Below are positions 11,296 to 50,911 of a DNA stretch of 64,000 nt, in pieces. The stretch lies in contig NC_135255.1 in NCBI RefSeq assembly GCF_964204865.1, positions 14,632,001-14,696,000 of the forward strand, read 5' to 3'. The notes under the pieces were generated by a model, which searched no databases, was not told the DNA's origin, and saw nothing but the letters and a program-made list of their open reading frames with translations. A program made the position numbers and the translations under genes. Origin of the DNA: Styela clava (taxonomy: Eukaryota). Within the stretch, counting starts at the first letter, position 1. Each line of letters opens with the position of its first letter.

Positions 11296-14200
11296 ATGGC
11301 AGTCAAATCAAAGCAGGGTATTCCTACCCAAAAAGTAATAACTATAAAGCATGGAAGTGCACCTGAAATCCAGGCTGTAAACATATCTGTGAAGAAAAGA
11401 AGATCTGGTAAGTATGGGGTGAAACTATCGGTATAGCATAGGAACCAATCTCTGATTTTTTTTTAATTGACCGAATTCACAAGAATCGGAAATATTTTTG
11501 TGACGATAAATTGTCGCATTGGTTCAGATGAGGCCGACAAGTAATTAATTTTTCTATGTTCGGGTTTGTATAGTACCTAACAACCTTGCAATCAACTTCA
11601 TAAGTCAACAATCTATGTTCCATTTATATATCGTCACGCTAATAACCGAATTGCGTAAGTCATTTTTGGCGATTTTGAGTTTTTTTTTATAAAATAGGTA
11701 TTTATGTAATGCCGCGCACCTGTCTGTTAACTCAGATTTTATTTTAAGAATTCCGAAACCCATAAAAATGGAGATTTAGTATGACATGCACATTTGTGCA
11801 ATTGTTTCGTCATAATGAATTATCTTTGTTACCTCAGGACTATTCTGACGTCACAAAGGCAAAATAACCTCGGCGAAGTATTTTCGAGTTTTTGCATCTC
11901 GGATTCTAGCTTAGCGCGTATTAATTTGAATTTATACTGCAGTACAGGAAGATGTGCACTTGTGATATTCACTGTCCGAGTCCAATTCACCTTGGTTGGC
12001 TTTTATATTGGGTGCATTGATGTTTTATTCTTTATTTTTATTCTTAGTCTTATTTCGGTGGGTGTGCAGAACGTGTTATATTGATGAAATATATATTTTT
12101 AAACATAAAAAATAATGTAATTGAAACTGATTAGCTATTTTGGGGATACGACATTGTAGATACTGAGAATTACATTCGTTTTAGGAATGTTTAGTTTTCA
12201 GGACTGGTGCATATATATAGTAAAGTTGCAAAATTGCGTATGTCCCCAAGTCATAGACACATTTCTGCCTAAGTGACAGTGCGCCATTATGACGTCACTT
12301 AACTGCGTCATACAAATTAACTTAAATCCGGCTACGATCATAAAATTGAACCATGGCAAATTATTGTCTCTCAATGGCATAACAATATCATTCGGAAGTT
12401 TTTTTACGTTTTTCTCAAAACTGCTAAAAATGACTTACGCTATTCGGTTATTAGCGTGACGATATGTAACCTATTTTTTGTAATCTAATAATTTGTTCAC
12501 TCCCAATAGATGCATCCAGGCAAAGCGATGAAGTTATGTTTCAAGGAGTTGTTGATATGGAACAACCATTTTATCGAAAACGTCCGCCGAGCAAAACCAT
12601 GACAACGACAAAGTCAACGATGACAAACGATGATGAATACCAGACCGAGGTTACGAAGGAAGAAGGACAGGGGACTCCTGTGACGTCGGGTATGGGCGAT
12701 GATCTCGTGGAACAGATAGATGACACGACTGATGAAATTCACATTGCGACAGTGAAAAACGCGCAACACAAAGCTTTAGCATGGAAAATGACACCCAAGG
12801 TAAACATATTTTAAACTTTCAAAGTTTGAAAACATACTAAATCCAAAAACATGTTGTCATAAAATCTGTATATGAAACGGACAAGTGTGATGAAACATAT
12901 TGTTCCCATCAGTGATTGAAAGCGTTCAAATGAATTGAGATAAAACAGCAAAATTTTGAGTGACCTATTGGTTCCGTTAGACTCGGAGAAAATTTGAATA
13001 AAATTAAAATCCTTCTGAAAATATGGAGCAACAATAATAATTGAGCGAAACGATCCATGATTCAACGCCGTGTCAATAAATATAATCGGCAATCTCATAT
13101 ATATATGCTTAAAGATAGGTAAACGTAACCAGCACAAGGGCCACATCGGAGAAAAAAGAATCGTATACTCGTATTATATAGTTGTACATCCAAATAATCA
13201 AACGTTCTACAGGTTCATTTTCCCGTTCGAGAGGATTCACCTCTTTTGACTTCACTTCCTCCTGCGTCTATTCATCAATATCAAGGAAGTTGGATGGCTC
13301 CGAGTCAAGCTGTAGTGAGTTGACTATAAATGTGTAAAACAAATAATTAATATTGATATTATGGTTATTATGCTAGCTTTTTAAAGTGCAAGTAAATAAT
13401 ATTTCACATTCTGAAATGAAAACGAATCGAAATAATATTTATATATATATATTATGTATGTATACAAACCGCGACCTCAACGCTGAACTTCTTCGATAGT
13501 CGCCAGATACTTTATTGTTGAGGTTTACATTATATTTGTCAATTCAAAAGCCATGTATTAAATTTATGTAAAGTGTGTCATATTAATTTAGAGTACGTAG
13601 TGACATACATACATTTCTGAAATGAGGGACCTGTGCGATACAAAATATAACCTGTTATGAACTTTTGTACCCTATTACTGGTTACAACGTAAATTTGCGA
13701 GTCCTTCTTAGCAAAAAAATATTGCTCTGTCGTCTATCATACCCATATGACAACTAGAATTTGATTCAACAAATTTATTTCTAGGATTGGAATTATCTTC
13801 CAGAACCCGTTATCGATCCGCCATTTGAACACCGACCTGATAAGTCATACGTCATTCATCAAAACCAACCCATTCCATTGAATCCACTCAAGGTAATATA
13901 TAGGTATCTTTTAAAGCACGTAAGCTATTTAGCAAATCTGCCTACGTGCATCCGCGAATGAATTTGTAATTTTCTCTTCGAATAGAAGTTTTTCTTCATA
14001 ATTTAAAAGCTCAACCTAAATGATTATATAAAATTACCAAACATTAATTGAATAAATTCCGCAAATGCCGTAATAATTACTCCATATTTAGGTGTGGCCT
14101 GGCTACGGAGGAAACTTGTATTTTGAACCAGTACGAGTAGAGACGAAACCGTTGAATATTAGAGAAGAAAATGGGCGACAAATTGGTAATTATGGAATCA

Positions 14201-17806: not shown

Positions 17807-18202
17807 TACAAGAGAGCTACGCCCAAATATATGGACACGTCTGTTCGCAGTACAGTACGGTTTACCGTACCGTCAGATCACAGTTTACAAATATATTCAC
17901 ACCAAGCGAAGCAGTACAGTAGGACACAAAATGGCGTCTGATGTCCGCAGAACGTTTAATGACGTCTAAGCAAACGAAAACAAATCTCACAGAGCTATCA
18001 GATATATTTTAAATGAATAAAAGTAATAGCCTTCTGGAGAAAAATTTCATCTTTAACCACTAAAAATTTCAAAGCAATTGGTCCAGTAATCAAAGAGAAA
18101 AGCGTTTTTTTAATAATTTCCACTAGGTGTCCAAAAAGTGTCAAACAACAACAAGAACAACATAACAACAAAATGATCGTTATGTCCACTAAACGTGTCC
18201 AA
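17807..18202 (-). mobile_element. Helentron-associated non-autonomous element (HINE/DINE-1-like), family A, short copy
   Basis: On the minus strand it begins TTGGACACGTTTAGTGGACATAACGATC and ends ACGTGTCCATATATTTGGGCGTAGCTCTCTTGT. It has asymmetric subterminal IRs (TGGACACGT/ACGTGTCCA) and a CTCTTGT end. Related fragments lie at ~8221-8290, ~26480-26662, ~45860-46105 and ~55095-55330. Confidence 0.65.
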
Positions 18203-18245
18203 TAAACACAGAACCTTACTTCGTAGAAATGACCATGGCAGTGAA

Positions 18246-19558
18246 AACAAGAGAGCTATGCTCAAATATATGGACACGTAAAGTCACATAATTTTGATGA
18301 CGTCATAGCGAAAAAAAAAGTAATAGCTTTCTGGAGAAAATTTTTATCTTTAACCACTAAAAATTTCAAAGCAATTGGTCCAGTATTCGAAGAGAAAAGC
18401 GACTTTTTAAAAACGTGTCAAGCGGTACTGAGTTAGCAGTCAGGCAGCATCTTACCTGTACACTGTAGGCCATATACGGTAATTGATCACAGAACAGTTG
18501 TTCCCTTGCAAATTTTATGTTGTTTACACTTTAGGACAGATAATTGATCCCAGAACAATTCTTCCCTTTCAAATTTTATGTTGTTTCCAGTAGACTCTCA
18601 TCAAAATAAACAAATATAGTAGGCTACAAGTGCTACAACGCTTGCATTACTGCACTGGTAGGACCGTGAAAGAATAAGTTACGGTAATTTCATTGTGGTA
18701 AGACACCGGTACCGGCACCAGTACCAGTATCGTACTTACGTACTGAGCTACCAGTACCGGTTAGCAGTCAGCCAGCATCTTACCTGTACACTGTAGGCCA
18801 TATACGGTAATTGATCACAGAACAGTTGTTCCCTTGCAAATTTTATGTTGTTTACACTTTAGGACAGATAATTGATCACAGAACAATTCTTCCCTTTCAA
18901 ATTTTATGTTGTTTCCAGTAGACTCTCATCAAAATAAACAAATACAGTAGGCTACAAGTGCTACAACGCTTGCATTACTGCACTGGTAGGACCGTGAAAG
19001 AATAAGTTACGGTAATTTCATTGTGGTAAGACACCGGTACCGGCAGCAGTACCAGTATCGTACTTACGTACTGAGCTACCAGTACCGGTACCGAACCTGT
19101 AGGTCTGATATTCCGTTCCGCATACGATAGGCTATAAAACTTGCATTGCAGCATTAGTAATACCGCGGAGGGAATAAGTCAATTTCACTGCGTTACGGTA
19201 CCTGTATGGCAACTTACCAGTACCGACCTACAGTAGCTGTAGTACTGAGCAAGACAATCGATCGCGAAACCGCTTGAAATAAGTGTAAAACAGTGTTCCC
19301 ATGAGTAAAAATAAATACCGCGAAATTTTGTATGAAATATCATATCTCATAGGATTCATATAAAATTTAAGAATAAACAAAAGTAATAGCCTTCTAGCGA
19401 AAAAATTAATCTTTAACCACTGAAAATTTCAAAGCAATTGGTCCAGTATTCGAAGAGAAAAGCGACTTTTTAAAAACGTGTCAAAGAACAAGAACAAGAA
19501 CAACAAGAACAACAACAACATAATATTGAAACGATCGTTATGTCCACTACGTGTCCAA
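18246..19558 (-). mobile_element. HINE-like family A element carrying an internal 2 x 328-bp tandem repeat
   Basis: Same termini as the 17807-18202 copy (AACAAGAGAGCTATGCTCAAATATATGGACACGT ... ACGTGTCCAA), with a 3' hairpin GAGC-ATA-GCTC on the minus strand. Near-identical units at 18432-18759 and 18760-19087. Confidence 0.65.
18432..19087 (+). repeat. Direct tandem repeat, 2 x 328 bp, each unit containing a ~60-bp sub-repeat
   Basis: gttagcagtcag(g/c)cagcatcttacctgtacac... begins at 18432 and 18760 with only a few mismatches between units. taattgatc(a/c)cagaaca...aaattttatgttgttt occurs twice per unit. Confidence 0.95.
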
Positions 19559-19901
19559 CAAGCTAAGTGTAATTTAGCTATTGATTTTAAGCTAACACCA
19601 TTCAAATTTGATATATATTCAATTTTGAAAATTTCAAAAATAGTCAAAATACCGAAATAATGATACATTTGTTAAATATTGCAAAAACCATCTGTTTCAA
19701 GTGATTTATTTGTAACTGAATGAACTTTCAGAGTCAGCTATCTTTCAAAATTCATATTAGAATATTAATAATATTAGGAAATTCAGATTGAAAAGAAATT
19801 AAAAGTGGAATTTGGTCATTATGTCAAATTTTTATCATTAATCGACAATGCAAGTCATATAAAAGTGTTTTCATGTTACGATTTTGAGGCGATTGGCGAA
19901 A

Positions 19902-20697
19902 GGCGATTTTGAGTTTTTCATAAAACAGGTATTTATGTAATGCTGCGCACCTGTCTGTTAACTCAGATTTTATTTTAAGAATTCCGAAACCCATAAAAAT
20001 GGAGATTTAGTATGACATGCACATTTGTGCGATTGTTTCGTCATAATGATATCTTTGTTACCTCAGGACTATTCTGACGTCACAAAGGCAAAATAACCTC
20101 GGCGAAGTATTTTCAAGTTTTTGCATCTCGGATTCTAGCTTAGCGCGTATTAATTTGAATTTATACTACAGTATAGGAAGATGTGCACTTGTGATATTCA
20201 CTGTCCGAGTCCAATTCACCTTAGTTGGCTTTTATATTGGGTGCATTGCTGTTTTATTCTTTATATTTAATCTTAGTCTTATTTCGGTGAGTGTGCAGAA
20301 CGTGTTATATTGATGAAATATATATTTTTAAACATAAAAAATAATGTAATTGAAACTGATTAGCTATTTTGGGGATACGACATTGTAGATACTGAGAATT
20401 ACATTCGTTTTTGGAATGTTTAGTTTTCAGGACTGGTGCATATATATAGTAAAGTTGAAAAATTGCGTATGTCCCCAAGTCATAGACACATTTCTGCCTA
20501 AGTGACAGTGCGCCATTATGGCGTCACTTAACTGCGTCATACAAATTAACTTAAATCCGGCTACAATCAAAAAATTGAACCATGGCAATATATTGACTCT
20601 CAATGGCATAACAATATCATTAGGAAATTTTTTACGTTTTTTTTCAAAATATGCTAAAAATGACTTACGCAATTCGGTAATTAGCGTGACGATATAT
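19902..20697. mobile_element. Second copy of the 11627-12466 TIR element, left TIR missing
   Basis: Colinear, highly similar to ~11668-12466 and ending in the same right TIR ...TTAGCGTGACGATATA. Confidence 0.9.
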
Positions 20698-20854
20698 AAA
20701 TAGCTTTCTAGCCACTTCATCCATCTTTGAGTATTAAAAATTTTAAATGGTTTGTGCAGAGTTTGATGGAAAGTGCAGTATTGACGAAAAGACTTCGGCA
20801 TTTGGTGGCGAACGTTCCATTGGGTTCTAAATTCCAATAAATGTTAGGCTCATT

Positions 20855-24589: not shown

Positions 24590-27065
24590 ACTTAAAACTC
24601 CGAAGAAATGATTAATCTACAATTAAGTACTTGTTCATCAATTGCTAGGATACTTGAAACGAAAATAATATTAAATTTTGGATACCATTTATATATCTTC
24701 CCGCGAAACTTAAGTGCGAAGGCAGAATACGGTACTCATGTGATTCTTATCAGTGTGTGGTATTTAGTAATCAGGAAGTGCCTAAAAATAACTTGCAGAA
24801 AAATGAACTCAAACGACCAATCATAACCAAGTTTCTCAGTACCAAGTATTTAGTATGTTTTATTTTACTACTAGTAATATAAAACACAGATAAGTGCATT
24901 CCCACCCAATTTATGGTAGATAGAATATTGCAGAATCTGTAGCCCTATGAATAAAGTAATACAATCTGAACCATCTCGTCTAAATGAAACTAAAGTATCG
25001 CATACCACTTCACCGAACAGACGTCATGGTACACTTGTTCTTGTCCTAATGTTGGAAGCAATAGTCAGCGTGACGCATAGGCTTTGTTTTTTTGGTAGAT
25101 CGATCTTCGAAACTAAATTATCATATTTTTAAAGCGTCAGTCTTATAAATTTTATCCATCGACATCACCCTCTAGTCTGACACATATACTGTAGTGTATA
25201 ACTCAAAAGTAATGACATTTAAAGTTAAAACCGTCTAAACTCTAAACCAAGCCATCTACATTAAAAATAAGGTTTAACGAAGTTAAATGTATGAAACGTT
25301 TTTTGTTTCATTTTTCGCTACCTATCTACTGAAAATAAAAATTCTGATCCTCGCCAAGATGTTCATTGTTTCGTTGATTTGGTTGTTTCTGTGGCGAAAG
25401 ACATATTATTAGGTGAATGCTAGACCTTGAAACAACAATAAAACGGACTGTTGGCACCGCTTGGAGTTGTTGAGTGTCACGCGTCCTCATTACATATACG
25501 AAGACGATTTAGTGAGTGAAACCTTTGGTTTTCGATGCCAATTTTAGACTTTGTAATTTGTATAGTTTCAAGTCGAAACTTGCAAGGAAACTAAAAAGAG
25601 TTAGGTTCAGCCTACTACGCATTGCATCTTATTGGACACGAAATGGACCTATGGATCGTTTTGTTATTATTTTGTTTATATTTTATTCTTCTTCCTATTG
25701 TTATGCAAAAAACGCATTTCTGATTTGTGGTACAAAATTTATATTTTGATCTATTGTCTAAATACTCTAAAACATTATTTGAAATGACGACGGAGAGTTG
25801 CGGTGCAGTTTATCATACCGGTTGTAACTTGGGGGTTCACTCTACCAACAACAATATCGCTTTTAGATTTCATAAAGCCTAACCACTAAAAATGTCAAAG
25901 CAATCGGTCCAGTACAGGGTTGGAACAATTGTAATTTGTAATTGATGTAATTAATTACAGTTTTTTATGTGACTGTAACTGTAATGTAATTGAGGCATTT
26001 TCATTCTGTGTAATTGTAAATGTAATTGTAATTTGCTAACATTTTGGCTCAATTACACTTTCAATTAGACCAGGGACCATCAAACTATGGCGTCTTTTCA
26101 TCTGGCACACAATAACACAAAAAAGGCGGAATAATTCTCCAATGGGCGTTTTCCGAGAATCGCCTTCCTTTTTTTCGTAACATTAGCCAATCAGCAAGAT
26201 GCGAAAAAGTGACGTAATCATATACCTTTTCGCATCCGTTAAAATGCTCAGACAGATTTTCAGTCGTGGTTGTTAACAATACCTCATTTTGCGATTTCGA
26301 ATGCTATTCGTTAGTTTGCATTTTGACAAAAACCCATTAATGTATTGGAAGAAGAAATCAGATGAATTTCCCAGGCTTGCTTCTTTAGCCAAGGATATAT
26401 TTTTCGCAGCCTAATGTTCATCAAGTGCAATCCTACAGTTTTTGAGAAAGTGAAACTGTAAATACGAACCAAGATGTTATCGGACAGGTTAGTGGACACA
26501 ATGATCGTTTTGACCAAAACTTTTGGTATTTTGTGTTGTTGTTCTTGTTCTTTGACATAGTTATTGAAAAGTCGTTATTCCCTTCCATTACTAGACCAAA
26601 TGCTCTGAAATTTTCAGTGGTTGAAAATGGAATTTTTTTCTAGAAGGCTGTTACTTTTTTTTATAGAGGACTTGCACGGGTCACGTGACTTTGTTAATGG
26701 ACGGCAATAAAACAAAAACGTCCATTTGGCTCCTGTCAGTTGCAAGTCGGATTATACGTTTCCGTTTTGTTTGGCTGTTGAAAATGGGTATTTTGTATTG
26801 TTCCGTTGGCTGTACGTATAGTATAGACAACGAAATGGATCTTCAGTTATATTCCACTGATTTCAAAAGATCCGTAACGTCGCGCAATGTGGATATCATC
26901 TATTGCCTATTGGCAGAACTGCTTGGTGTCAAGTCCAGAAGCCATCTTACTTGTGTTTCACTGTTTGCGGGCAGCACTTCGTTGATGGTGAGTGATAATG
27001 TGGTGATAGTGTGCCGTTATCAATTTTTTTAAATATTTACAAGCTCCCTCATTTCAATGGAAAGC

Positions 27066-27270
27066 ACGCTGGCCACCGCCTCTCTGATCACCCTGGTAGT
27101 TTCACAGGTTTCAATTCCACGCGGGGATAGTTATGTGCGAGAGGATTGCAGCTCTACTCCCACCGAGGGTGGTTCACATGACCGCTGATCGGTTACGACC
27201 ATTCCCCACCATCCAAGTCCATGCTTCTGAAAACAAATAACTGGCTCCCCCCCAGATAAATCCTATCCTA
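27066..27270 (+). mobile_element. tRNA-derived SINE copy in the left arm of the ISL2EU element (mirror copy at ~28905-29175 on minus)
   Basis: B-box-like GGTTTCAATTCC, then the family body GACCGCTG.TCGGTTACGAC...CCACCATC.AAGTCCATGC.TCTGAAAACAAATAACTGGCT and a GATAAA..TCCTATCCTA tail. Confidence 0.7.
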
Positions 27271-27448
27271 ATGGAGCTTGTACAACTGATCCATAATGTC
27301 TTTTTATTGTCATTGGTAAAAAAGATATGCTACCCGGAATCAAATTCATTTACGACTAGTGGCTGTGGTGGGATATGGACATAAATTTCACACTTCTTGA
27401 TCGTTAGATTTTATGAAAACTATCTGTAAAATATCCATTATCTTACAG

Positions 27449-27950
27449 ATATGGGTGCGACCATGGAATAGATGGATGGCAAAGTATAAGTTGCAACAAG
27501 ACCACAGTGGCACAAGACCTCAGCTTGCGTGACTTGATAATACATCCTCAGTATCCATTTATTGATGCTTATCGTAATGACAAAGTAACTTGTGATTACT
27601 GTGGATTGGTGGAGATAAAGTGTCCATTGTGCTTTAACGGAAGCAACTTCAAGACGACCCTATCAAGAAAAAAAAATTGTTCGGTGGGTCTGGTAGTGAA
27701 GGTTTTAGTCTAACGTTGGACACCGATACTACAACCAGATACAGTTGACAATGAAACTTACCGAAGCGTAATATTGCGACTTTGTAATCTGAAAGGAAAT
27801 TCTGATGGGTAGCCGGCTAGCCGCAACCTTTTGTTTAAAGAATATTATGAGATATGATTTTTAAGAGTCTAAACTTTTATTTGAGAGGGGTGTAACCCAA
27901 GCTAATTTGCAAATGGTATTCATGGTACCAAATGTATCACACACTTTACA
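27449..27950 (+). pseudogene. YqaJ/lambda-exonuclease-like nuclease remnant of the ISL2EU element
   Basis: LIIHPQYPFIDAYRNDKVTCDYCGLVEIKCP and HRYYNQIQLTMKLTEA*YCDFVI are degenerate versions of the YqaJ motifs GASPDG, EIKCP, YYxQxQ and CDFV. Stops and frameshifts are present. Confidence 0.8.
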
Positions 27951-28029
27951 GTAATTATAAATTATATTTGAAAAATAAAGCACATCAAAAATGTATTTTT
28001 AAAAAACAATTGGTTTTATCTGCAGATAC

Positions 28030-29655
28030 TAGGTTGATATTGAGATTGACCATTTCAATGCTAAATTTTCTTTAGTCAAAAGGCACACTTGATTCGCAAA
28101 GATTTGTGAAAGCGCACAGTACACCAATTTGTCTAATGTTTTGATTCCATAGGCAAGAGGTTGTGGATCGGTGCTGATCAGGATGGGATATTTTTGCCTC
28201 TAACTGCATATTACATGTTTCACATGAATCCATCGTGCTCAAATTCGACTGTTTTCAAGGTCTGAAGGCTCCAATAGCCTTATTTTATGGGTACACAAGA
28301 GAATTTTTAGTGTGGCATGCATGGGTCAGTTGGAGTCACTAACCTCAAGATGTCTATAAGCAAGGATAAGATAACCTGGAAATAACATTCCATAATTTAG
28401 AGTAAAAAATGTATCTTCCTCCACAGGCCTTTTTAAATGGAAGATATGATGCCTCGGGGGTAATTTCTATCAAATATTTTACAGTATTATGGTTCTAGTG
28501 AAAAGGGGTGTAGGCGGCTTTTTTAAAGTGTGGTAAGTCTAGTCGAAAGACACATTAAATGTTTATGCTAACAACTGCAAATTAATATTGCAACGCATAC
28601 AAGTTAACAGAATTTGTTGAAATGGTCCTTTTGCCGTTCTTCAAAATCCCCCTCTTTCTAACTATTCTCTTCCTCTCTGGGGATGGCAAAAATTCAAATA
28701 TTGATGGGACATATAAGCAGCTGATAATGGATTATCTTCCCTTTTTCCTGAAAATAAATTAAACACCAATCATCATTTGACAGTGCCAAGTTTGTGTATC
28801 AGATCAATAATAAATTACCTGCTAACTAACAAAACAATCAGACAACACCTTCTGACCATTAATGAAGATTTCTTTCAATTTAAAACGCAACTATGCCTAC
28901 CAATGTGGGTAGTTTTTAGGATAAAATTTATCTGTGGTTGGGGACAGATTGCAAGGTGCAACATCGTACGATTACCATTCTATGTCGAGATTAGTTAGCC
29001 AGTTATTTGTTTTAGAAGCATGGACTTGATGGTGGGGGATGTCGTAATCGACCAGCGGTCATGTGAACCACCTTCAGTGGGAGGAGAGCTGCAATCCCCT
29101 CGCACATAACTATCCCCGCATGGGATTGGAACCTGTGAAACTCCCAGGGGGATCAGAGATGCGGTGGCGAGCGTATTCTTAGATGGAGAATTCAATTGAA
29201 TTCTGGTTATTTTTTGCATTAGCACTGGCGTTAAACTTTAGTTATCTATTCAACTTTTCACACTTACTAATAGATTACCTGCTAACTAGGGAAACAATAC
29301 CTTATGGCAATTATTGATTAATACCTTACACGAGTCAAGTCTGCAAGTAGGCCTACGCCTAGGCCTACCAATAACAGTAGTTTGTCATCTGCTTTCCATT
29401 GAAAGGGAGGGAGCTTATGAATATTCAAAAAAATTGATGACAGCACATTATGACTTACCATCAACGAAGTGCTGTTCGCAAACAGTGAAACACAAGTGAG
29501 ATGGCTTCTGGACTTGATACCAAGCAGTTCTGCCAATAGATGATATCCACATTGCGCGACGTTCCGGATCTTTTGAAAACAGTGGAATATAACTGAAGAT
29601 CCATTTCGTTGTCTATACTTTACGTACAACCAGCGGAACAATACGAAATAACCAT
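28030..29655 (-). pseudogene. THAP + Harbinger-type DDE transposase remnant of the ISL2EU element
   Basis: THAP exon 29655-29459 (MVISYCSAGCT...FHCF/KDPERRAMWISSIGR...VCEQHFVDG|gtaag). The next exon from ~28747 reads GKREDNPLSAAY/VPSIF. DDE fragments follow: NHNTVKYLIEITP, KACGGRY, PGYLILAYRHLEV, ARWIHVKHVI. Multiple frameshifts. Confidence 0.8.
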
Positions 29656-29982
29656 TTTCAACAGCCAAACAAAACGGAAACGTATAATCCGACTTGCAAC
29701 TGACAGGAGCCAAATGGACGTTTTTGTTTTATTGCCGTCCAGTAAACAAGGTCACGTGACCCGTGCAAGTCCTCTATTTCTAAATTTCGTCTGAAATCTG
29801 ATATTTCGTCCAAGATTTTTCTGTCTTATTTTATCCAAGGGAGCACTGGCTGGCTGGTTTGATTCTTGCCACGCGAAACTCGGGATTTTTTTTGAGGGTA
29901 TCGGTAGCGTCGAGAGTAAGGACTGCTTCGCCTTGTGTAACGTGTCCATATATTCGAGCATTGCTTTGTTTTAATTGTAAAT

Positions 29983-34157: not shown

Positions 34158-36421
34158 ATATGCAAACTATAGTACAAATTTTATGGCCGTGCTTGAAAAT
34201 ATATTATTTTATAATATGCGAGTAACCTTGGAAATTGTGAAAAATTATTTTAATAAATTGTACTCTATGGATCATGTTTAACTTATTATGGATCCTACCA
34301 AAGTAATTTCAATATCATTCTTGGCCAGAATGCCAGAAATGCATAATACTTTCTTATCTTAGTTCAATATTATCTGTTCGCATCTTTAACAATCGCTGTT
34401 ACAATTCTCATGCTTTCAGCACTTTGCCAAAGATTTTACAATGGGTTGCATAATTGTTTTGAGTAATTTGTGGAAATAATATGTTTCGTGTTATTTATGT
34501 ATATTTAGATTGTCTAAATATTAGGAATTACTATTCTGTTATTCAGCTCTTCTGTGAAAATATATATAATTCGCTGTCTTAGTTCAAGGCCTGTTTTGTT
34601 AATTGAATTTTAATCTGTATTATTTTTATACTATGTTGTTCTCCTTATTTCTTTTGTAATTATTCTGTATTTACTGTTGCATTGCCTATTTGTTATCAGT
34701 TTAGTATTTATTTTTGTTAGCGTAAGGTAGTAAATTATGATATTACAAAAGATATCTGATCATCGTACTTTGTTTCACAGGCGGTGTCAACATCTCTATT
34801 GAGATTCAGTTATTGGTTCTAGATTGCTCATATTTGTTGAGTGTGAGCAGTTGTGTGCGTTTTCATTCATTAATAACTAGGGAGGAATATTCTAAAAATG
34901 AGTATATAGTCGCAAAAGATTAGATCATATATTGTATACAGAGATGTGTCATATTTCAATACATGTCTGCACAATTTGAACAAATGTTCAATTGTCAGGA
35001 TACTAGCCATGTTCATGATACGGTGGTGAACGGAATAGCCTACTTATATTTTCTTGTTTTTATCGAGGGTTGTAGTTGGCCACCATAGTGAGCTATTCGT
35101 CAGCATCTTTTTCTAGCCCCATTTGCGAGTGCCACCACGTTAAAAGAGCTGGTTGAGTGAAAAAAAAGTCTCCCGTCCGTTTGCCTCGGCTTAAGAAATG
35201 AGATTTTGCGGGTTGGACCACCTACTCTTCAAAATGAAATGAAAAAAAAAAGCATTTTTCTGTTTCATACGTAGAAATTTTTCAGACTCTCAAGACTTAA
35301 ACCCCGCTTACGGTCGAAACTTAGAACCTCCTTTTAAAAATTCGCGGCTAAGCCCCTGAATTTGCGATAACAATCAATCCATGAACGTTTTTGCATCGTC
35401 GCTGATCAGTCTCGCGAACATGCGAGTGTGCTCCCAGTTCTCAAATTTTAAATTTCGGCGCTCAGTATTTCCATAGTTCGGACAGCAAAATAGTACGGGC
35501 TGGTAATTTTATTACTTTATATTGTGTTATCTACGATAAAAAGCCAGAAAAACGAAGTTTTAGATAACGGTAATGATACACGGTACCGATACGGTATAGA
35601 TACCGCATACCGGTACGGTATAGATACCGCATACCGGTACTGATGTCTGGATGTAGACTTTCTATATACCGGTACCGCAAGATTAAATAGGATTTTCATA
35701 TTTATCCAGGGGGAGAGGAAAACCGATATGACAGCTTAAACTGCCTCTTGGCCGTGGAAATGCACGATATAATGAGCTGGTAAATTACTTGTGTAAAAAC
35801 AGAACAATGTACATTTTTATAACAAAATGGCAAATGCTGAAATGGGTGTATCAAAAACGGAAATAAAAATCATGTGTAATTAATTCGCTGGTGAAGTATA
35901 AGTACAGAAGTAAAAGTTTATTTCGACTCCGTAATCAGCATAACAATACATTTGACAGATAAAAACAAATAAATAAAAACTGATTATGAAATCAGGGGAG
36001 CAAACGAAACCTTAGATAAGGTTCATAACGTACAAAATATAAGATGGAAGGTTTTGCCAAGAGGAAGTGGTACGAACCGGTACGTGTTTACTCACCTAAA
36101 ATTATTAAGTTATTTCACAATTAAATTTATCTCACAAGATTCGAACTCTGGTGCGATGGCTAGAATATTCCTACTGCTTACCACAATGTGCAACGCTGCT
36201 GCACTTTTGTATGTGAGCCTGCCAGTGCAGCAGTGGCAGTTCAATTCTTTAGACTTCTCTAACATATTACAGTATTAATTCTCCCCATACAGTTCTAGTT
36301 TAAATGTTTTGCGAAATAAATTGTGCCATAACCAGTGCTAAAAATAAATACAATGCAATGAATATTTTTGTGCTTGACAGAATATACATACATTGCATAT
36401 TTTTATATTACTCCCGACAAG

Positions 36422-38464
36422 ATGGGTAAATCAAAATATAATACAGAAAAGAAACACCGCAGAGAAAGGTCCAGTAGTCGGGAACAACGTCGAGACAAAG
36501 AACGTGGTTATAAAAAGAAGAAGTCTAAATCACGAAAACGATCACGGTCATTGTCCCATTCATCATCAATTTCCAGGAGCCCCTCTGGGTCTGACCGCTC
36601 CAGAGATGGAGATAAAAAAGAAAAAGAATTTAGTTTGGAAAAAGAAAAGAGAAGAATAAAAGAGGAGAAAAAAATGCAGAAAGAAATTAGGAAAGCTCTT
36701 GAAACTCCAGAAGAAAAACGAGAGAGAAGAATCGCTAAAAAAGAAGAAAAAGAGAGGAAAAGAAGAGAGAAAATGGGATGGGACAAAGAATACATGGGAT
36801 ATACCAATACAGACAATCCATTCGGTGACAGCAAGTTGCTGGACACTTTTGTTTGGCATAAGAAACTTGATCAACAAGGTCTAAAAAATCTATCTGTAAT
36901 AGAGAAAAAGAAAATCATGCATCAAAAACAAGATGTAAACAAAGTCGAGCTTGCAAAAGTCAAGCAACAACGATTGGAACGAGAACGTGAGCGAAATCAA
37001 CGCGATGAAGAAATGGAAATTATTCAAAGAGAAAAAGAAGCGGATCATTTTAAAGTTTGGGAAGAACAAGAAGATAAGTTCCACCTGGAACAAGCGAAGC
37101 TTCGGTCCCGTATTAGAATAAAGGATGGCAGAGCTAAGCCAATTGATTTACTAGCAAAATATGCCAGTAGTGCAGAAAATATGGATGATCTATCTGGAAT
37201 AGAAATGCAGGAACCATATACATATCTAAATGGCTTAACTATTTTTGATCTTGAAGATTTGCTTGCTGATATTAAAATATATATGGAATTGGAACAAAGT
37301 AAAAATATAGATTTCTGGCGTGATATGACTGTAATAACCGAAGAAGAACTCCAAAAATTGAAACGAATTGCTGTGAAAGAGCAGGAACAAAGTACAAGTG
37401 GAATACAAGCTCGGGAATCTCGTAGAGAAGGTGTCAATAGAGCTGTGGCGGACGATGTAGCGAATATTTTTCACAGCAAAAGTCATTCTCAATTAGTTGC
37501 TTTACACAAGAGTATGACAGAACGAATAAAAGCTGGTGGCTCCAGTCTTGATGTTGGGTATTGGGAATCCCTTTTGTCACAGCTAAAAGCATACATGGCA
37601 AAAGCAAGACTCAGAGATAGCCATCAAGAATTGTTGAAAAGTAAATTATATAAACTTAAACTGGATCAACTTGGAGCAGATGCTGTTGAAAATACTTTGT
37701 TCCCTATTAAGCCAGAAACTGATCCTGAAGCTGGAAAAGCAGAGGAAGAAGAAGATGACAGTGAAAAGGAAGAAGAGAAACAAGAGGAAACGATGACGGA
37801 AGAAGATTGGGAGAACAGATTTATGGATGACTACGAAGCAGGGGGATTCAGTCCAAAACTTCTAAGATCTGGGGACATTCCACCTGACACTATTATTATT
37901 GATGCTGCAGAAGCAGCTCTCACATTAGAAGGCAGAAGAAAACTTTTGAAAAAGACTGGAGATGCATCGACAGGAACTGAGGATGCTTTTGTTCGTCACG
38001 TTAAGGAAGGAATGGATAATGCTGCAGATGAAGATGAAGCGGGAGCTACATTTGCAGTTGAGGCTCAAATATCTCAGCAGGTTTATTTATGGGCAGACAA
38101 ATATCGGCCCAGGAAACCAAGGTTTTTCAACCGTGTTCACACCGGGTTTGAATGGAACAAATACAATCAAACCCATTATGATTTTGATAATCCACCACCT
38201 AAAATCGTTCAAGGATACAAATTTAACATCTTTTATCCTGATTTGATAAATAAAAGTGAAGCCCCGACGTACACAATCACTCCAACTGGAGACAAAGACT
38301 TTGCTATTTTACGTTTTTCTTCTGGCCCTCCATATGAAGATATAGCCTTTAAAATAGTAAATCGGGAATGGGAATATTCCCACAAACATGGCTTCCGTTG
38401 CCAATTCATAAATAGTATCTTCCAATTGTGGTTTCATTTTAAAAGATACAGATATCGTCGATAA
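36422..38464 (+). CDS. CACTIN: Cactin (spliceosome C-complex factor), 680 aa, intronless CDS
   Basis: The ORF from ATG 36422 (preceded by an acceptor-like AAG) has an RS-rich N-terminus, GYTNTDNPFGD...FVWHKK and FHLEQAKLRSRIRIKDGRAKPIDLL. Its C-terminal CactinC domain reads KYRPRKPRFFNRVHTGFEWNKYNQTHYDFDNPPPKIVQGYKFNIFYPDL...FKRYRYRR*. Confidence 0.97.
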   Translation: MGKSKYNTEKKHRRERSSSREQRRDKERGYKKKKSKSRKRSRSLSHSSSISRSPSGSDRSRDGDKKEKEFSLEKEKRRIKEEKKMQKEIRKALETPEEKRERRIAKKEEKERKRREKMGWDKEYMGYTNTDNPFGDSKLLDTFVWHKKLDQQGLKNLSVIEKKKIMHQKQDVNKVELAKVKQQRLERERERNQRDEEMEIIQREKEADHFKVWEEQEDKFHLEQAKLRSRIRIKDGRAKPIDLLAKYASSAENMDDLSGIEMQEPYTYLNGLTIFDLEDLLADIKIYMELEQSKNIDFWRDMTVITEEELQKLKRIAVKEQEQSTSGIQARESRREGVNRAVADDVANIFHSKSHSQLVALHKSMTERIKAGGSSLDVGYWESLLSQLKAYMAKARLRDSHQELLKSKLYKLKLDQLGADAVENTLFPIKPETDPEAGKAEEEEDDSEKEEEKQEETMTEEDWENRFMDDYEAGGFSPKLLRSGDIPPDTIIIDAAEAALTLEGRRKLLKKTGDASTGTEDAFVRHVKEGMDNAADEDEAGATFAVEAQISQQVYLWADKYRPRKPRFFNRVHTGFEWNKYNQTHYDFDNPPPKIVQGYKFNIFYPDLINKSEAPTYTITPTGDKDFAILRFSSGPPYEDIAFKIVNREWEYSHKHGFRCQFINSIFQLWFHFKRYRYRR

Positions 38465-43200: not shown

Positions 43201-46200
43201 TTTAGATATTATGCTGGAGGTTTCAGAATGTTGTCTGCACAGTTAAAAGATGGTGAGATGTTCTTTAAGTTTGTTTATTTGGTTATTTTTTATTCAACAT
43301 TTTTTTTTATTTGGGTTGACTATCAAGAAATTAAAGACTATTTGTTGCTAAGATTTATATATTTATCCTGACGGAGAGGAAAGTCAATAAGACGACTTAC
43401 TGGGTTTTGTCAACCAGTTACCTGTTTTAGATGCATGGACTTGATGGTGGAGAAGGCCGTAACCGACCAGCGGCCATGTGAACCATTCTGTGGCGACTGT
43501 GAGTCCAGCAATCTTTTCTTACATAATTATCCTGCACAGGATTCGAACCTGGGAACTTTGCTTTTGTACAGTTTAGGTAGTTGCGATGATTTGTGCATAA
43601 ATAAGTTATTAGCAAATACAAAGCAAAATTTCACTTCCCGAATAACAAAAATCCAATCTACGGGAGAAATACTCCCTGGTTGGAAAACTTTATTTTATAG
43701 CAGTGGTTCTCAACCAGGAGTCCGCGGACCCCCGGTGGTCCGCAAAGCATTTCCAGGAGGTCCGCGATCAAATTAAGATTTTAGGAAATTATTTGCAGTT
43801 TAATAACATTTTTTTTTTGTAATTCGCTCGAACAATTGCTGCCTATGACAATGTGACAATAGACTACAAAAGCTATTTTGATTTATCTCCCATAAACCTT
43901 TTGTCACAAATACGAGTTATGACATCACAATGATAAATACGAGAACGCAGCTACAGTGATTTCAAGGGCATGTGGTCACTGGTCACGTTCTCATTTGAAT
44001 CGAAGTAGCTAGTTGTCTCTACAGCCAGTGTGTAACAAAGGAGATTGTGTTGCTTTCTAAAACCTAACCAGCATGGCTAAATCAAAAAAGTACTCGGAAA
44101 GTTATCTTGAAATGGTGTGTCCTCAGTGTCAGAGGGTGGCAAGGAAAAACCGCAATGCCTTTTATGTTGTGTTATACTCAGCACCTTTCTCACAAATCAC
44201 TTTCTCGGTTTTGGTGCGCCATTTTGCTGTCTTACCCAAAAGTCTCAATGGAAGCATTACGTGTTATTGTTTCATTCGCCTCCACTTACCTTTGTGAAAA
44301 TGGATTTTCTGCTCTCGTTCATATCAAATCCAAGGCTCGTAACCAACTAAACGTCGAAGACGATATGCGTCTATCGTTATCAAAACACGACCACATATTT
44401 CAAGACTTGCTTCTGATATGCAACAGCAGAAATCCCATTGAGTGTAATCGATTTGACAAAATAAATAAAATGTCCGCTAGTTTGGTGTAATTTTTGACTT
44501 GGTTGAATCTGTATGGAACATTAGGTTGCTGTTTAAGCTATAAACTAAATTTCAAATAAAAAAAACTTTTGAGGGGTTCGCGACTGCTTTGAGAGCACCA
44601 GAACGGTCCGCAAAGACAAAAAGGTTGAGAACCACAGCTTTATAAGATGTTTATAGGTGACATTAATTCCACTTTGTGCAAGTTTTGAGTAATTTTAATC
44701 ATATTTGACTTGCTTGAAACTAGGCTTCGAACAACTTTTTATTGAATGAGTTATTATGTTTCAAAATATTTTACTATTTTGTTTTATAAATTTCAGATAA
44801 CTCCAGGACGATATTCCGGACAGAAGGTGGATTCAAGATACTTGCAGCAAAACCATATTTGCGAAAAACACTCCTGGGGAAAGCTTTCGCTTACGGTCAA
44901 CAATCTGATTTTGCGTGTTCTGTACTTCACACAATACAATCTGCATGTTCAAAATGCCCAGAGAATACAACTGCATTTCTTCAAGAACAATTAATGTCCG
45001 AGGTAAGGTGTTGATGACTGAATTTTCAGATAAATGGAGAAGTTTTATAATAGACTTAAATTCAGATAATTGTGATTATTGCTTTTGTGATATTAATTTA
45101 ATCTATGTGTTACAATTTTCGTTTGTTTTCCAATTTCTGACAACAAACAAATGAGTTAATCATGCAAAGACTAATTTTTCTTGTGACTGATACAGATGGC
45201 AGAATTTAGAGAATCTTTGAAAATTCGTTTTTATCCCCAATGTTCTTCTAAAAATCTAAAATGTAGTCAATATGGTCATCGATTATCTGTCCTGGTCCAT
45301 GAACGGCTACAGTTTTATTTAGGTTATAGATAATCAGCAATCATTTTTTTTTAGTTTTATTTTATGCTTTAGTCAATAGAAATCCAATTATCGAATCATC
45401 AGTGTTAAGTGTATATGTTTCTCAGAAATAATATATTAACAAAGTTTGTATCAATAAAATTGAGACATATTTCACCATGGAATCCACCAAGCTGAAACAT
45501 GACCTTGACATGGACTGGTAACTGGACGAGAGGCCGTGGTTTCCCATAATTTTTAGGTCTCATTGATTTTCATCTCCTTCGAGATAAATGTGAAAATCCT
45601 TATTTCTCTAGTCTCTAAATTTTTTTCTTTTTGTCTATAGATGATGATGAACTTGATGGAAAGTGACGACAAGCAGGTGAAACGTGCAGCTATATGTTGT
45701 TTCATCGAGTTTGCATCAAATGATAAAATGATCGACACTGTGTTGGATATCTTCAAAGCTACCTGGTAATTTCTTTTATAATGTTTCTCAGACACAAATG
45801 GGTCGTTTTGTCACTTCATATTTTTCTTCTCATTGCTGTGTAAAATTGCTTTTCTCTATTTAACTTTGACATTTTCAGTGGTTAAAGATTGTTGTTGTCG
45901 CTAAAAGTCTTATTTACTTTCTGTGGACACTATAACCTCTATGAATTTCATTTTGATGAGTCGATGACACCATCAAAATAAAAAATTGTCGTGGTTTTGT
46001 GATTGTGAGTGCATTTCAAGAATATCAGGCTGAAGACTACCGGTACTGTAAGATTTGATGCTACTCTGTTTTGGTCGCATATATTTGAGCATCTCTCTCT
46101 TGTTTTGATTGGAATCAATTTTAGAGTAATAATATTCTAACTAGTTTGGCTACTTTTCAGGTTAACAGCAAATCTTCTAAGCAAAGACACAACCAAGTTG

Positions 46201-49200
46201 AAGTTATTAGATGAAGGGATTTTGTGCCTAAATCGATATTCTGAGAATAAAAGGTTGCTTTGCTAGTTTTATTTTTTTATCACTTGTATTCATATTTCGT
46301 GTTCATGATTTTTTCGACATTGCTTTTTTGTAAAAAGTTCTTACGTCTGTGAAAAATTCGCTCATTCCTACAACTAATATATTTTAAAATTTGAGTACTT
46401 GAAAGATAGGAAAAGATACTAAAAGGCTATTACTATTTCTTTTCTATGAATTTTATGGAGCCCGATGTATAATTCATGGGTTTACTTTCATATTACCATA
46501 TATTTGAAACAATTGCTTATGACGTTGAGTCATTTCTTCTATTATTTTACTGACATTGAGGTGGCCATATTAAAACATCATGTCCATATACCGTATTTTA
46601 TGTACCATAAGGCGAACCAATTTATAAGGCGCACTGTGGATAAATTGCATAGATTGGGTTTTTATAAGGTGCATCGGGTTTAAGTGTACACAATAAGGCA
46701 TGAAGCACTACCTGATACACACATTAGGCGCACCGGCTTATAAGGTACACAATTGATTTTTAAGAAAAAGGGGATTTAAAGCGCGTCTTATGGTCCGTTA
46801 AATACAGTATTCGGACACTGGCTCTCTCGTTTTTAATGAATTTTGTAAAAAAATTTCAGCTTTTATACTGAATAATACTCAATATCATTTCCAATGTTCA
46901 CTTACAGGTTTCGACAAGATGTTGTGCCAGAATTCGATGCATTGGTGCTTCAAGTTTTCAAAAAGTTTATTGTAAGTTAATACGACTCTATTATACCATC
47001 ATTTAAATAAATTAACAATTTGGACTTTATAATTAAGTTTTTTCACGAATTATTTCACTGATTATAGCACTATTTTGAATCAAGTATTATTTGCTTCATG
47101 GTATTCTACGTAAATCACGAAATGGTAATGATAATTTGATTTAACTAAATTCTTCGAACATACATGTGATGTGGTCATATTACAGGCATTCAAATTATTA
47201 TAATAATAGCATAATTTCGGATTTCAATGAATATATCTCCAAAATACTGTGAACTTTTTATTTTACTCTCAAATTTTTCGCTCTCTTATAAATAAGAGAC
47301 AACATGAAGTCTGAAGATAATACATTTATTTCAACAGGATGAAATAGCTCATAATCAAAGGAAAGAAATACCAAAATGTATTCAATGTTTATGTACGTTT
47401 GCAAAAAATAAAATGATATGTCAACAAGTATCATCTAATGATGCTTTCTGGGAAAGTCTACTTTCATGTATTGTAAGTGTATTTGATTATTCCTTATCAG
47501 TAAGATGTCATTGGTACATTACGAAAAAAAAAATTTTGTTTAAGTCACTTTTTGTAGTATAATGAAATATTTACATATCAACTCAGAAACTTACAAATAT
47601 AAACATAATATTACATATCAGTTTTTGTCAAATTTAGTGATTTTATTAGAAACTAATTTAATTATGTGGAAATTTTTGCACGAAACGGTTTATTTTTACG
47701 AGGTGGAGATATGTCATACAACTGGGTCTGACAAGACAAGTCCTGCTCGTTCCTGTTATAATTTTTATCAGTTATGTGGATGCACTATATTTTGAGATCG
47801 TTGCATAGCATTATTGCTGCCGATTTTAATTGTTACTGTCAATCTCTTTATAAATATGTTATTATGTGTAATATAAAACATAGGAACTTTTGCAACATCA
47901 TGGTTGTACTTTCTTGCATATATGTTTTTTAATATTATATTTCTTACCATTACGAGACGAATAAACATACATAATATACGTCAAACATATTTGAGATCAT
48001 TTGTAGAATAAGTCATTTCTCTTTTTGTTTTTATAGGATCGATGTATACATGTTATGGAACCCAGTTCATACAGAGATGATATTCTATCAAAAATGATGG
48101 ATATTACAGAGATGCTATTGCTTCATTCCAATGATTCTACAAGTAAAATTTCACCAAGATTAGCAGTTTGTATTCAACCTCTCCTCAATCATGGAAAAGA
48201 ACATCTTGTAGTGGTAATGCTTATCTTTCTCTTATTTCTGAAATTTTAGTTCAAACTTGAGCTGTATTTGAAACCACATTTAATAACTTTCAAAGTAATG
48301 TATTTGAGTAAAACTCATAAATTTGTGACACAAAAAAGAACTGTTTAGAGATGCACTTATAGATTTTTTGTCTCTCGTTTCCACATCTTGACCCTATAAC
48401 AATCTCATCGACAAGAAGCCTTTAATTAACAAGGAGCAACTAATTATGAAGCATCGTGCTTGTCTGGTTTCAAGCTTGAATTTTGTGTGGGATAATTATT
48501 TGCAAGAGGATTGCTGGACTCACAGTTGTGGGTGGTTCACATAACCGCTGTTTGTTTGCGTCTTCCTCCACCATCCTTTCCTTTCCCTCAGACATGAAAA
48601 TCCGAGATCATATCTCATAGATAGCCAACTTCATGAAAAACCAAGTTGAAAATAGCATGGTTTAGGTGGAATTGATGGGCCACGTTGGACATTTCCTTCA
48701 ATGACTTTTTCATACTTTTTTTTGGTTTTTTTTTTGGTATTCGTCCACAATTGATTTATAATAATATTCAGAAAACCATGACTGTTATTACGAGATGTTT
48801 GGAACGTTCAAAGGAAGCTGTGAAAAGTTTTCAGTCGTCTTCTGGATTGGTCTTCATTAAAAAGATTTACAAATCTATGAAGGTAAAAAGGTTTCACAGT
48901 TATTGAACATGACCTATGGATGGATTTGTTGTGTTGTTGTTGAGTTTTTCTTCTCTTCCTTGTTGTTATTGTGGAAAAACCAACTACATTTTTTCAACTA
49001 CTGGGCGAATGGTTTAAAATTTTCAATGGTCAGGTTGTTGTTGTTGCTAGCTGTTTTCAGGATACTAATTTTATCTATTTTGAAAATATTTGTGGGCTCT
49101 ATGACATGAAAAAAAAATTTAAAGTGCACCTTCTGTCCTGTGAAATACAGTGCTTGAAAATTTATTGATTGATTTGCATCTAATTAAATTGACTTTACTT

Positions 49201-50911
49201 ATCTTTTCATCTGTTGCAGAGTGAAGACATTATTATGAGAACATATGCATTGAAGATCATGTGTCACTGTGGACAGACTGATCCCACTCTCCTCAAAAAT
49301 GTACCAAAATTTGATAAAAGTATGTTTATTGATGTTTTTGCTTCTATTTTCACTTACCGTATATATGTGTATAAACAAAATTAAAAATTATATATTTATG
49401 TTTTATCAGGATATAATGCCATCAGAAAAATTCTGAGTTTGGAAGAAAATGAAGCTGATGTCATGAATCAGGGAATGGCTGCACTTTTATTAGGATGTTT
49501 GTCACAGGTAGGGTATATTGACTATAGCTGAATAAAAAGTTTGTTATATATACCATATTTTATGGAACATTAGGAGCGCTGTTAATAAATTGCTTAGATT
49601 GGGTTTTTATTCATACATAACGGCACACCGGGCTATAAGACGCAGCAGTTTTTAAGAGGTTATATACGGCGGTGTGTATGTTAAACAATAGGAGCAGTAC
49701 TGGTTTTGAATGTAGGCAATAAGGCATATAGCACTAGCTTATCCAGACGTTAGGCACACCAGCTTATAAAGCACTCGATTAACTTTTGTCAAAAAAATAG
49801 GGTTTAATATCTGATATTCTGATATCAGAATCCATATCTGATTTCAGAACATTGTTTTCATCGCTGAGTTTTTTCAGCTTGTCCGCTTCGTTAGTTTTCT
49901 ATTTGAATGTCAGCAAGCAGATCAAAACTGGAAATGAACAACACAGACGAACCAATGACATTTCTGTTTTTATTGTTTTAGATGTGATCGACCGGAAAAT
50001 ATATTGATTTATGTCACTTTCCACTTCAACTTGCCCCCATTTAGAATGTATTCCATATTCAAAATTATTTTCTCACAATGTATTCGGAATAGTGAAATAT
50101 TTGGTTTTGGGCCGACCCTGCTTCCAGCCTAAGCAAACACTGCCATAGCTAAAGCGAATTTTCAGCAAATGAGGTTACCATTAACTTTAATCGTAGCTTG
50201 TAATCAGTATATCTGATCTTGAAATCTAATTTTAAATCGATAGTTACCTGGTGGAATGGATCCTTTGGTTGATTACAAAGAGGAAGCCTCCAATGTTGTT
50301 AAACACATGTTGGAATTGTGCAGATATTCAAAAAATAACAATACAAGATACAACTGTGTCATTGCTCTCGGAAAAATGGCAAGCAATGATGGAAGGTATG
50401 GCTACAAACAAGTAGAGGAAACAATAATTTTATTTTGTGTAGTTCTCTTTAATAATGTATACATGGGAAGAAGTTTAGGTCATGGGATCAACTGATAGAT
50501 TTTTTTGATTTGGTCAATGTTTTTTCTCTGTTCATAAACCCTACCTCTGCATACTAGTTTTATTAGGTGTAATCATCATTATTGGGATTAAAGCTAGTTC
50601 ATGCATCTGAAACAAATTACTGGCTAACTAATTCAATACCTGTCATGGACTGGTAACTGGGAGAGAGGCATTGGTTTGCCATATCATTAAGCCATCCTAT
50701 TACCTTTCCTCTCCCCCGGTTTTAATATGTAAATCCTATCCTATTCAAGACTTGTAAATGGTATCAACTTGATTGAATTATGTACACTTGTGATAAGTTG
50801 AACTAAATTATTGAAGTTAATATCTGAACTTTGTTTTACAGGATACTTGGGGAAGTTCGAAGATTTGATGGAATCAACATATTGTCCAAAAATAAGCCAC
50901 CCCATGTTTAG
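40296..50911 (+). CDS. TTC12: Tetratricopeptide repeat protein 12 (TPR + armadillo-like; axonemal dynein assembly), ~16 exons
   Basis: Exons start near 40296, 40548, 41325, 42346, 43040, 44797, 45641, 46161, 46909, 47338, 48037, 48772, 49220, 49410, 50244 and 50842. They give KDLEKFLAKVDDV, QFLNALEADANTRAQARRE, a TPR (KMKANDAFKNEEYKTALSLYSEAI...LYTNRAMTHIKLQQYDESIADCEMAL), RTIFRTEGG and NCVIALGKMASNDGR...VRRFDGINIL, matching the TTC12 layout. Confidence 0.88.
43370..43555 (-). mobile_element. tRNA-derived SINE copy (family also at ~45500-45610, 48480-48600, 50600-50745, 54085-54345, 59275-59390)
   Basis: Minus strand contains the B-box GGTTCGAATCC followed by the family body GATTGCTGGACTC...GGTTCACATGGCCGCTGGTCGGTTACGGCC...CCACCATCAAGTCCATGCATCT. 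Confidence 0.7.
43701..44637 (+). mobile_element. Internally deleted hAT (Buster/Charlie-type) transposon in TTC12 intron
   Basis: TIRs CAGTGGTTCTCAACC / GGTTGAGAACCACAG with degenerate 8-bp TSD TTTTATAG/CTTTATAA. It retains the transposase N-terminus (KKYSESYLE, EKPQCLLCCVIL, BED-finger start) fused to the hATC C-terminus (FWCAILLSYPKVSMEAL...FASTYLCENGFSALVHIKSKARNQLNVEDDMRLSLS). Confidence 0.9.
46591..46807. mobile_element. pogo-like MITE (second family), TA-flanked; decayed copy ~49552-49800
   Basis: TA|CCGTATTTTATGTACCATAAGGCG ... GCGTCTTATGGTCCGTTAAAATACAG|TA with internal TAAGGCGCAC repeats. Confidence 0.65.

Follow-up and report, generated by a model that had tools for sequence, protein, structure and literature searches.

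A probable non-autonomous ISL2EU sub-family in Styela clava in which the transposase end has replaced the YqaJ end

We analysed a stretch of 64,000 nucleotides from Styela clava (NCBI RefSeq assembly GCF_964204865.1, contig NC_135255.1, positions 14,632,001 to 14,696,000 of the forward strand), hereafter called the window, whose own numbering is used throughout. It contains a 3,111-bp element (26665-29775) which very probably belongs to a non-autonomous sub-family of ISL2EU that has one of its ends in duplicate: the end on the side of the transposase gene would have overwritten the end on the side of the YqaJ nuclease gene. ISL2EU is a group of the PHIS transposons characterised by AT target-site duplications and by a THAP-HTH-DDE transposase accompanied by a YqaJ protein (PMC4482050, PMC9179366, PMC4122938; here and below, statements from the literature refer to parts of the cited papers). 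A first-pass annotation, made from the sequence alone, had assigned the element to ISL2EU and had offered two explanations for the THAP exon seen in each of its arms, namely that both proteins of the family receive the same THAP module or that one end was overwritten by the other. The assignment is supported by the AT flanks and by the DDE_Tnp_4 and YqaJ remnants described below, and the second explanation is supported by a frame break and by a deletion in the tail of a short interspersed element (SINE), both of which are common to the two arms.

As the first-pass annotation had reported, the ends of the element are perfect inverted repeats with AT on each side; 25 nt are identical at 26665 and 29775. 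Within the window there are two occurrences of the terminal 16-mer, whereas 0.10 would be expected by chance. The two AT copies (26663-26664 on the left and 29776-29777 on the right) represent the target-site duplication of an ISL2EU element, since the reconstructed empty site has a single AT. This empty site aligns through the junction to another copy of a dispersed host repeat (19556-19291); the repeat is cut by the insertion (26477-26664) and resumes past 29777. In addition, contigs of two public sequencing runs, X1 and X5, join 26660 directly to 29776, that is, they carry the empty site. Members of the host repeat family that the element splits are located at 17955-18421, 19291-19561, 26477-26664, 45860-45920 and 55205-55333. 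The usual ISL2EU target A|AT|T and the GG start of the repeats, as given in PMC4482050, are absent here: the base 5' of the AT is T instead of the reported A, giving a T-AT-T flank, and the ends begin with AG. Because the relatives found in this study also start with AG and have mixed flanks, this looks like a trait of a sub-clade. An Rfam search of the element returned one chance-level match only, and the terminal 24-mer was not found in metagenome contigs.

The homology between the two arms runs far beyond the termini. Alignment of 26665-27246 with 29775-28997 gave 35 mismatches in 561 aligned bases and one indel of 215 nt, which are found only in the right arm, and a further block of 22 nt extends the homology to 27271 and 28916. 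Inward homology had been annotated before with an extent of about 400 bp; the homology stands, and its total extent is about 600 bp. Both arms comprise a leader followed by a THAP exon, some intron sequence and a SINE-like dispersed repeat. The left arm (26665-27271, plus strand) duplicates the transposase end, beginning at the terminus and ending with the tail of this repeat. The left terminus with its leader (26665-26783, plus strand) and the right leader with its terminus (29656-29775, minus strand) differ by only 2 mismatches in 119 positions. The inner parts of the arms differ at 22 of 245 positions (9.0%) versus 13 of 316 (4.1%) for the outer parts (Fisher p 0.02).

The SINE-like repeat is found at 27067-27271 in the left arm (plus strand), where it has an internal deletion at 27246/27247 and where its 3' tail forms the junction with the YqaJ remnant, and at 28916-29178 in the right arm (minus strand), where it lies 5'-truncated in intron 1 in the orientation of the transposase. 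We take it to be a tRNA-type SINE from what are presumably A-box-like and B-box-like motifs in its head and from its short tandem tail. At least seven other fragments of it occur within the window; copies were located at 43353-43555, 48478-48576, 50596-50744, 54060-54353, 57082-57317 and 59350-59387. Across the insertion the two arms are 91% alike, versus 73-82% to the other copies in the window. A 9-nt deletion in the SINE tail is common to both arms and is absent from all four other window copies that could be aligned at this place; two independent insertions are disfavoured by this common deletion, with a crossover in the last 16 nt or so still conceivable, and both arms appear from the alignments to hold one and the same SINE insertion. 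No more than 1-2 nt separate the end of the left arm from the 3' tail of the SINE, which is in sense orientation to the transposase gene. In the right arm, the tail is bordered directly by a diverged direct duplicate (28787-28915, minus strand) of the intron stretch 29251-29383; this duplication of about 130 nt aligned with a score of 70, compared with a maximum of 37 and a mean of 24 for shuffled sequences.

The THAP exons are located at 26784-26987 (plus strand) and 29459-29655 (minus strand). A THAP profile made from 32 relatives fits the ATG frame for its first 24 positions only and then continues in another frame, and this is the case in both arms; the left exon has an additional frame shift through a 7-nt insertion. 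The Pfam THAP domain PF05485 was found in a single frame, the second one of the right arm (E 9.8e-06), and in the ATG frame of neither arm. The THAP exon is dead by this frame break in both arms. An ATG-initiated THAP exon had been annotated in each arm; the exon ends and GT donors at 26987 and 29459 hold, but the frames are not intact. The donor is a phase-1 GT which fits the acceptor of transposase exon 2, starting at 28747, with intron 1 (28748-29458, minus strand) bounded by GT and AG in phase 1, which fits the annotated splicing of the right exon toward the transposase. On the left side, 9 candidate acceptors from the stretch 26990-27470 were tried, and with none of them does THAP read in frame into the YqaJ nuclease region. 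A homologue search with the THAP piece gave no matches, which is weak evidence from a decayed query.

The transposase remnant from exon 2 onward (28072-28747, minus strand) gave eight HMMER matches, five of which are DDE_Tnp_4 transposases; the other three (P0003, P0007 and P0008) are unrelated repeat proteins and were discarded. Alignment with DDE_Tnp_4 relatives revealed two large internal deletions and the lack of the first D, while the second D reads Tyr (28358) and the E reads Lys (28220), and stops and frameshifts are present. All three catalytic residues are therefore lost, and the element has neither the catalytic triad nor the two intact open reading frames (ORFs) of an autonomous copy. 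The THAP, HTH_Tnp_4 and DDE_Tnp_4 combination of ISL2EU is present in the form of remnants.

The second gene of ISL2EU is represented by a frameshifted YqaJ remnant on the plus strand (27272-27922) with a probable intron ending at 27448. In tblastn with Pfam-confirmed YqaJ proteins of relatives as queries, it aligned at about residues 340-533 of 615 (E 4e-12); the remnant alone had no Pfam match, and a homologue search with it returned none either, this query being decayed too and the evidence weak. The two gene remnants are convergent, facing each other as the first-pass annotation had stated. The left exon does point into a YqaJ remnant, as had also been stated, but the latter begins only at about residue 340, just past a conserved motif, where the SINE tail ends at 27271. 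When the first 335 residues of the YqaJ proteins of four relatives were searched for, they matched nowhere in the window; about 340 N-terminal residues are gone. From this mid-gene start and the missing N-terminal part, the left arm is fused into the middle of the YqaJ coding sequence. The element has long repeats which derive from one end and contain transposase homology, with the other end replaced.

For comparison, relatives were collected by a scan with an alignment of 38 transposases, which yielded 80 loci. A THAP match was present in 58 of them (the 22 without one were not counted), and a terminal-motif test accepted 26 as two-ended and excluded 32. The 26 two-ended relatives form 11 sequence clusters, are 2.3-4.6 kb long, have convergent YqaJ genes and begin with the same terminal bases as the element. 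Their ends are imperfect repeats of about 25-80 bp, with one THAP in each element. In 25 of the 26, the best end-to-end match stops no more than 81 nt from the terminus, at or before the start codon; the exception is L034, whose end was probably mis-set. An inverted second THAP inside the element was found in none of the 26. One candidate for this, at L038, belongs to an adjoining, different element, and a 219-nt repeat around L023 lies outside the ends of the element there; both were rejected. The adjoining element at L038 (10633-13155 of that locus) also bears a THAP, has related ends and lies right next to an ISL2EU element that is intact. The transposases of the relatives carry PF05485, PF13613 and PF13359. 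Of 25 YqaJ-side ORFs, 15 match YqaJ, some of them also PHD, and none gave a THAP match; nor is THAP listed among the Pfam families shown for the 8 Atlas clusters nearest one such ORF. No relatives were found in viral contigs. The loci L010-L079, from one assembly, hold at least ten ISL2EU clusters with AG-starting ends and several open YqaJ-PHD frames of 600-645 aa, which are good material for a study of the YqaJ partner.

These results bear on the idea that long repeats of the parent family supply the transposase and YqaJ with the same promoter and THAP exon, in the manner of MuDR, and that the present copy has simply decayed. The convergent genes and the near-identical leaders would suit it, and so would the promoters in both repeats of MuDR (PMC3440606) and the repeats longer than 100 bp in 3 of 25 ISL2EU families listed; the parent itself is unseen. 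However, the two arms share one frame break and one SINE, the junction lies within YqaJ coding sequence, none of the acceptors tested reads in frame, and no THAP was found on the YqaJ side of the relatives or in the Atlas families listed. Moreover, one contig of run X7 follows the terminus to 26772 and then departs into different sequence that has an ATG of its own, the course expected of a native YqaJ end. We therefore regard a shared module as very unlikely, and this alternative of the first-pass annotation was not supported. The ATG of the X7 contig stands at about the distance of the YqaJ starts in the relatives, which hints, from this single contig, that it is a native YqaJ end. Under the end replacement that we favour, the twin THAP exons are passengers and not a shared protein module.

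To see other copies, reads and contigs of four public runs, X1, X5, X7 and X21, were compared with the element; X21 consists of raw reads of a Hi-C library, and X5 bears a different organism label from the other three, from which no conclusion was drawn. The comparison covers the best-supported 40 of 424 substitutions, 12 of 49 indels and 15 of 265 joints, and contig depth is not copy number. In X21 the depth is 30-214 in bins of the interior and 287-403 in SINE-free bins of the arms, while only 194 of 14,316 reads are at least 99% alike to the element, corresponding to at most about 8-fold coverage. At position 27275, beside the junction, all 60 X21 reads (with about 50 different starts) differ from this copy. 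The arm-YqaJ junction itself is bridged by X5 record 9 (27217-27353, with 55 letters before and 82 after it) and by X7 record 17 (27162-27477), both of which carry the majority letters at 27275 and 27294; X5 record 9 has a depth of 60, compared with 3-11 for low-depth contigs of that run, and 2 other letters. Contigs of high depth from other runs have the same junction; whole copies with differing flanks were unseen. We concluded that the symmetric form is multi-copy and estimate at least 8, probably tens, of copies.

This leaves little room for the explanation that the symmetry arose once, in this copy, after its insertion. Only a single whole copy was seen and its arms differ by 6%, as that explanation would have it, but the bridging contigs with majority letters belong to other copies, and at the 4 listed of the 13 outer arm mismatches 91-94% of X21 reads carry the letter of the other arm. 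Because of these read proportions, the listed outer-arm differences are private to this copy, and a one-off origin is highly improbable. The first-pass annotation had reasoned that other family copies with short repeats and a distinct left end free of a THAP exon would make the symmetry a one-off rearrangement; intact relatives with short repeats and a distinct YqaJ end do exist, but the symmetry is not a one-off, since other copies carry the junction. Long inverted repeats are generally known to mislead assemblers, and one end might have been mirrored artificially; against this, 35 substitutions and several indels separate the arms, the flanks give a clean empty site and independent runs carry the junction, so that the chance of an assembly artefact is negligible.

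The lesions are likewise common to other copies. X7 record 23 passes the THAP break with 0 gaps at a depth of 88, and none of the 12 indels shown falls in either THAP exon. Over 660 nt of the DDE region (27861-28520), X5 record 13, at a depth of 102, has 1 gap and 13 letters that differ; the 12 of these letters that are listed leave the three stops and both lost catalytic residues unaltered. Since high-depth contigs share the THAP break, the stops and the catalytic losses, the lesions predate the spread: the family form from which this copy differs by about 2% was itself dead. No splice joint is among the best 15 of 265 joints, which is uninformative on expression; no run is on record as RNA, and X7 is only conjectured to be. 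The joints 27014-29210, 27207-28435 and 27250-27521 occur in X1, with 1-4 reads in X21, and resemble what would be left of the symmetric element after shortening by deletion. Contigs about 85-88% alike to the right end (29535-29777) are present in three runs (X1 record 7, X5 record 16 and X7 record 24) and point to older or autonomous relatives.

We infer the following order of events. An ordinary ISL2EU element with convergent genes and short repeats would have acquired the SINE in intron 1 of the transposase gene and lost the THAP frame. Next, the YqaJ end and the first 340 or so YqaJ codons would have given way to a copy of the transposase end that reached from the terminus as far as the SINE tail, the tail being the join point of the copied arm, after which some 215 nt and part of the SINE would have been deleted from the left arm. 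Finally, a related transposase that was still active would have acted in trans on the dead element, which had two ends to which transposase could bind, and carried it to many sites, here to an AT inside the host repeat. The copying step would most simply be a deletion across two inverted or nested copies, or template switching during gap repair. By analogy with what has been proposed for mariner, a deletion between inverted or nested copies could end at the SINE tail by microhomology.

An RNA route for the copying step is also conceivable, in which a read-through transcript ending at the SINE tail was reverse-transcribed by a long interspersed element (LINE) into the YqaJ exon of a sister element and the inner ends were mobilised. 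Such a transcript would span the terminus, exon 1 and the unspliced intron, and the left arm is indeed complete to the terminus; priming at the tail of a SINE in sense orientation predicts the observed breakpoint, and the SINE tail of the right arm also borders the diverged duplication. Nevertheless, the route requires a rare target and a read-through RNA, a chance microhomology of a few bases or SINE-SINE pairing would also make the join, and a progenitor with the native end still attached is unseen. We consider this route unlikely. More doubtful still is an extended version, in which the LINE enzyme primed on the intronic SINE tail copied the end into a sister element and the copies could make fold-back or convergent RNA against the active ISL2EU family.

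Several points weigh against end replacement as set out here. A single assembly contributed 25 of the 26 two-ended relatives, and with protein identities of roughly 35-60% across the parts that align, the relatives are not the parent family. Neither a whole second copy nor an autonomous parent was seen from this species, and none of the contigs listed spans the whole element. Furthermore, a single copying just before the spread does not explain why the inner arms diverge more than the outer arms; the outer part may have been converted later.

End swaps are known from other transposon groups. Our literature searches found no such case for ISL2EU, although one may exist in Repbase or Dfam, in subscription journals or among the figure supplements of PMC4482050. 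The element resembles ISL2EU in its AT duplication, its THAP-HTH-DDE_Tnp_4 and YqaJ remnants and its animal host, and its relatives share the convergent layout and the terminal bases; it differs in that both genes are dead and in its arms of about 600 bp with exon 1, intron and SINE, whereas ISL2EU repeats range from 6 to 259 bp and are no longer than 81 bp in 22 of the 25 families listed (PMC4482050 Table S2). A parallel is mariner, in which end replacement has led to long repeats and amplified non-autonomous lineages: in Dromar7/11/28/36 of Drosophila (PMC4161770) and Rpmar49/Rpmar17 of Rhodnius (PMC4678618), an end with transposase sequence replaces the other end, and the lineages were amplified from one progenitor. 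These elements belong to another superfamily, have one gene and are mostly less than 1 kb, whereas the present one is a 3.1-kb two-gene remnant with its breakpoint on a SINE tail. In Galileo of Drosophila willistoni (PMC4168063), transposing copies likewise hold coding sequence and a secondary transposable element insertion in both repeats, but Galileo belongs to the P superfamily, what its repeats recruited is the 3' end of the ORF, and members of this family usually have long repeats. MuDR of maize shares the convergent genes driven from both repeats, and Mu killer shares two transposase-side ends with partial transposase copies in inverted order (PMC3440606). Mu killer, in contrast, is a single locus with silencing demonstrated, while the present element is multi-copy with a 1.6-kb spacer.

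The surroundings of the element are gene-dense and intron-bearing, with a RING gene on its left and a Ras-like gene and Cactin on its right. The Cactin gene (36362-38461) is a single stop-free frame of 700 codons, while the other genes of the region are split into exons. A pair of repeats of about 800 bp (11622-12469 and 19902-20701), 96% alike and with inverted ends of about 57 nt, is probably another non-autonomous DNA transposon, and a 328-bp tandem duplication with copies 98% alike lies at 18432-19089.

The finding adds ISL2EU, a group with two genes, to mariner and Galileo as transposons in which non-autonomous lineages can arise by end replacement, and implies that two transposase-side ends suffice in cis for ISL2EU movement. 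It adds nothing new on the role of YqaJ. For annotation it is a warning: where a THAP exon precedes YqaJ, the arrangement may reflect a rearrangement instead of a gene. The position of the breakpoint at a SINE tail is of wider interest as a possible case of a retroelement reshaping a DNA transposon; were the LINE-copying reading true, the sub-family would be a new mobile one with two identical promoter ends, and could act as a self-spreading animal counterpart of Mu killer.

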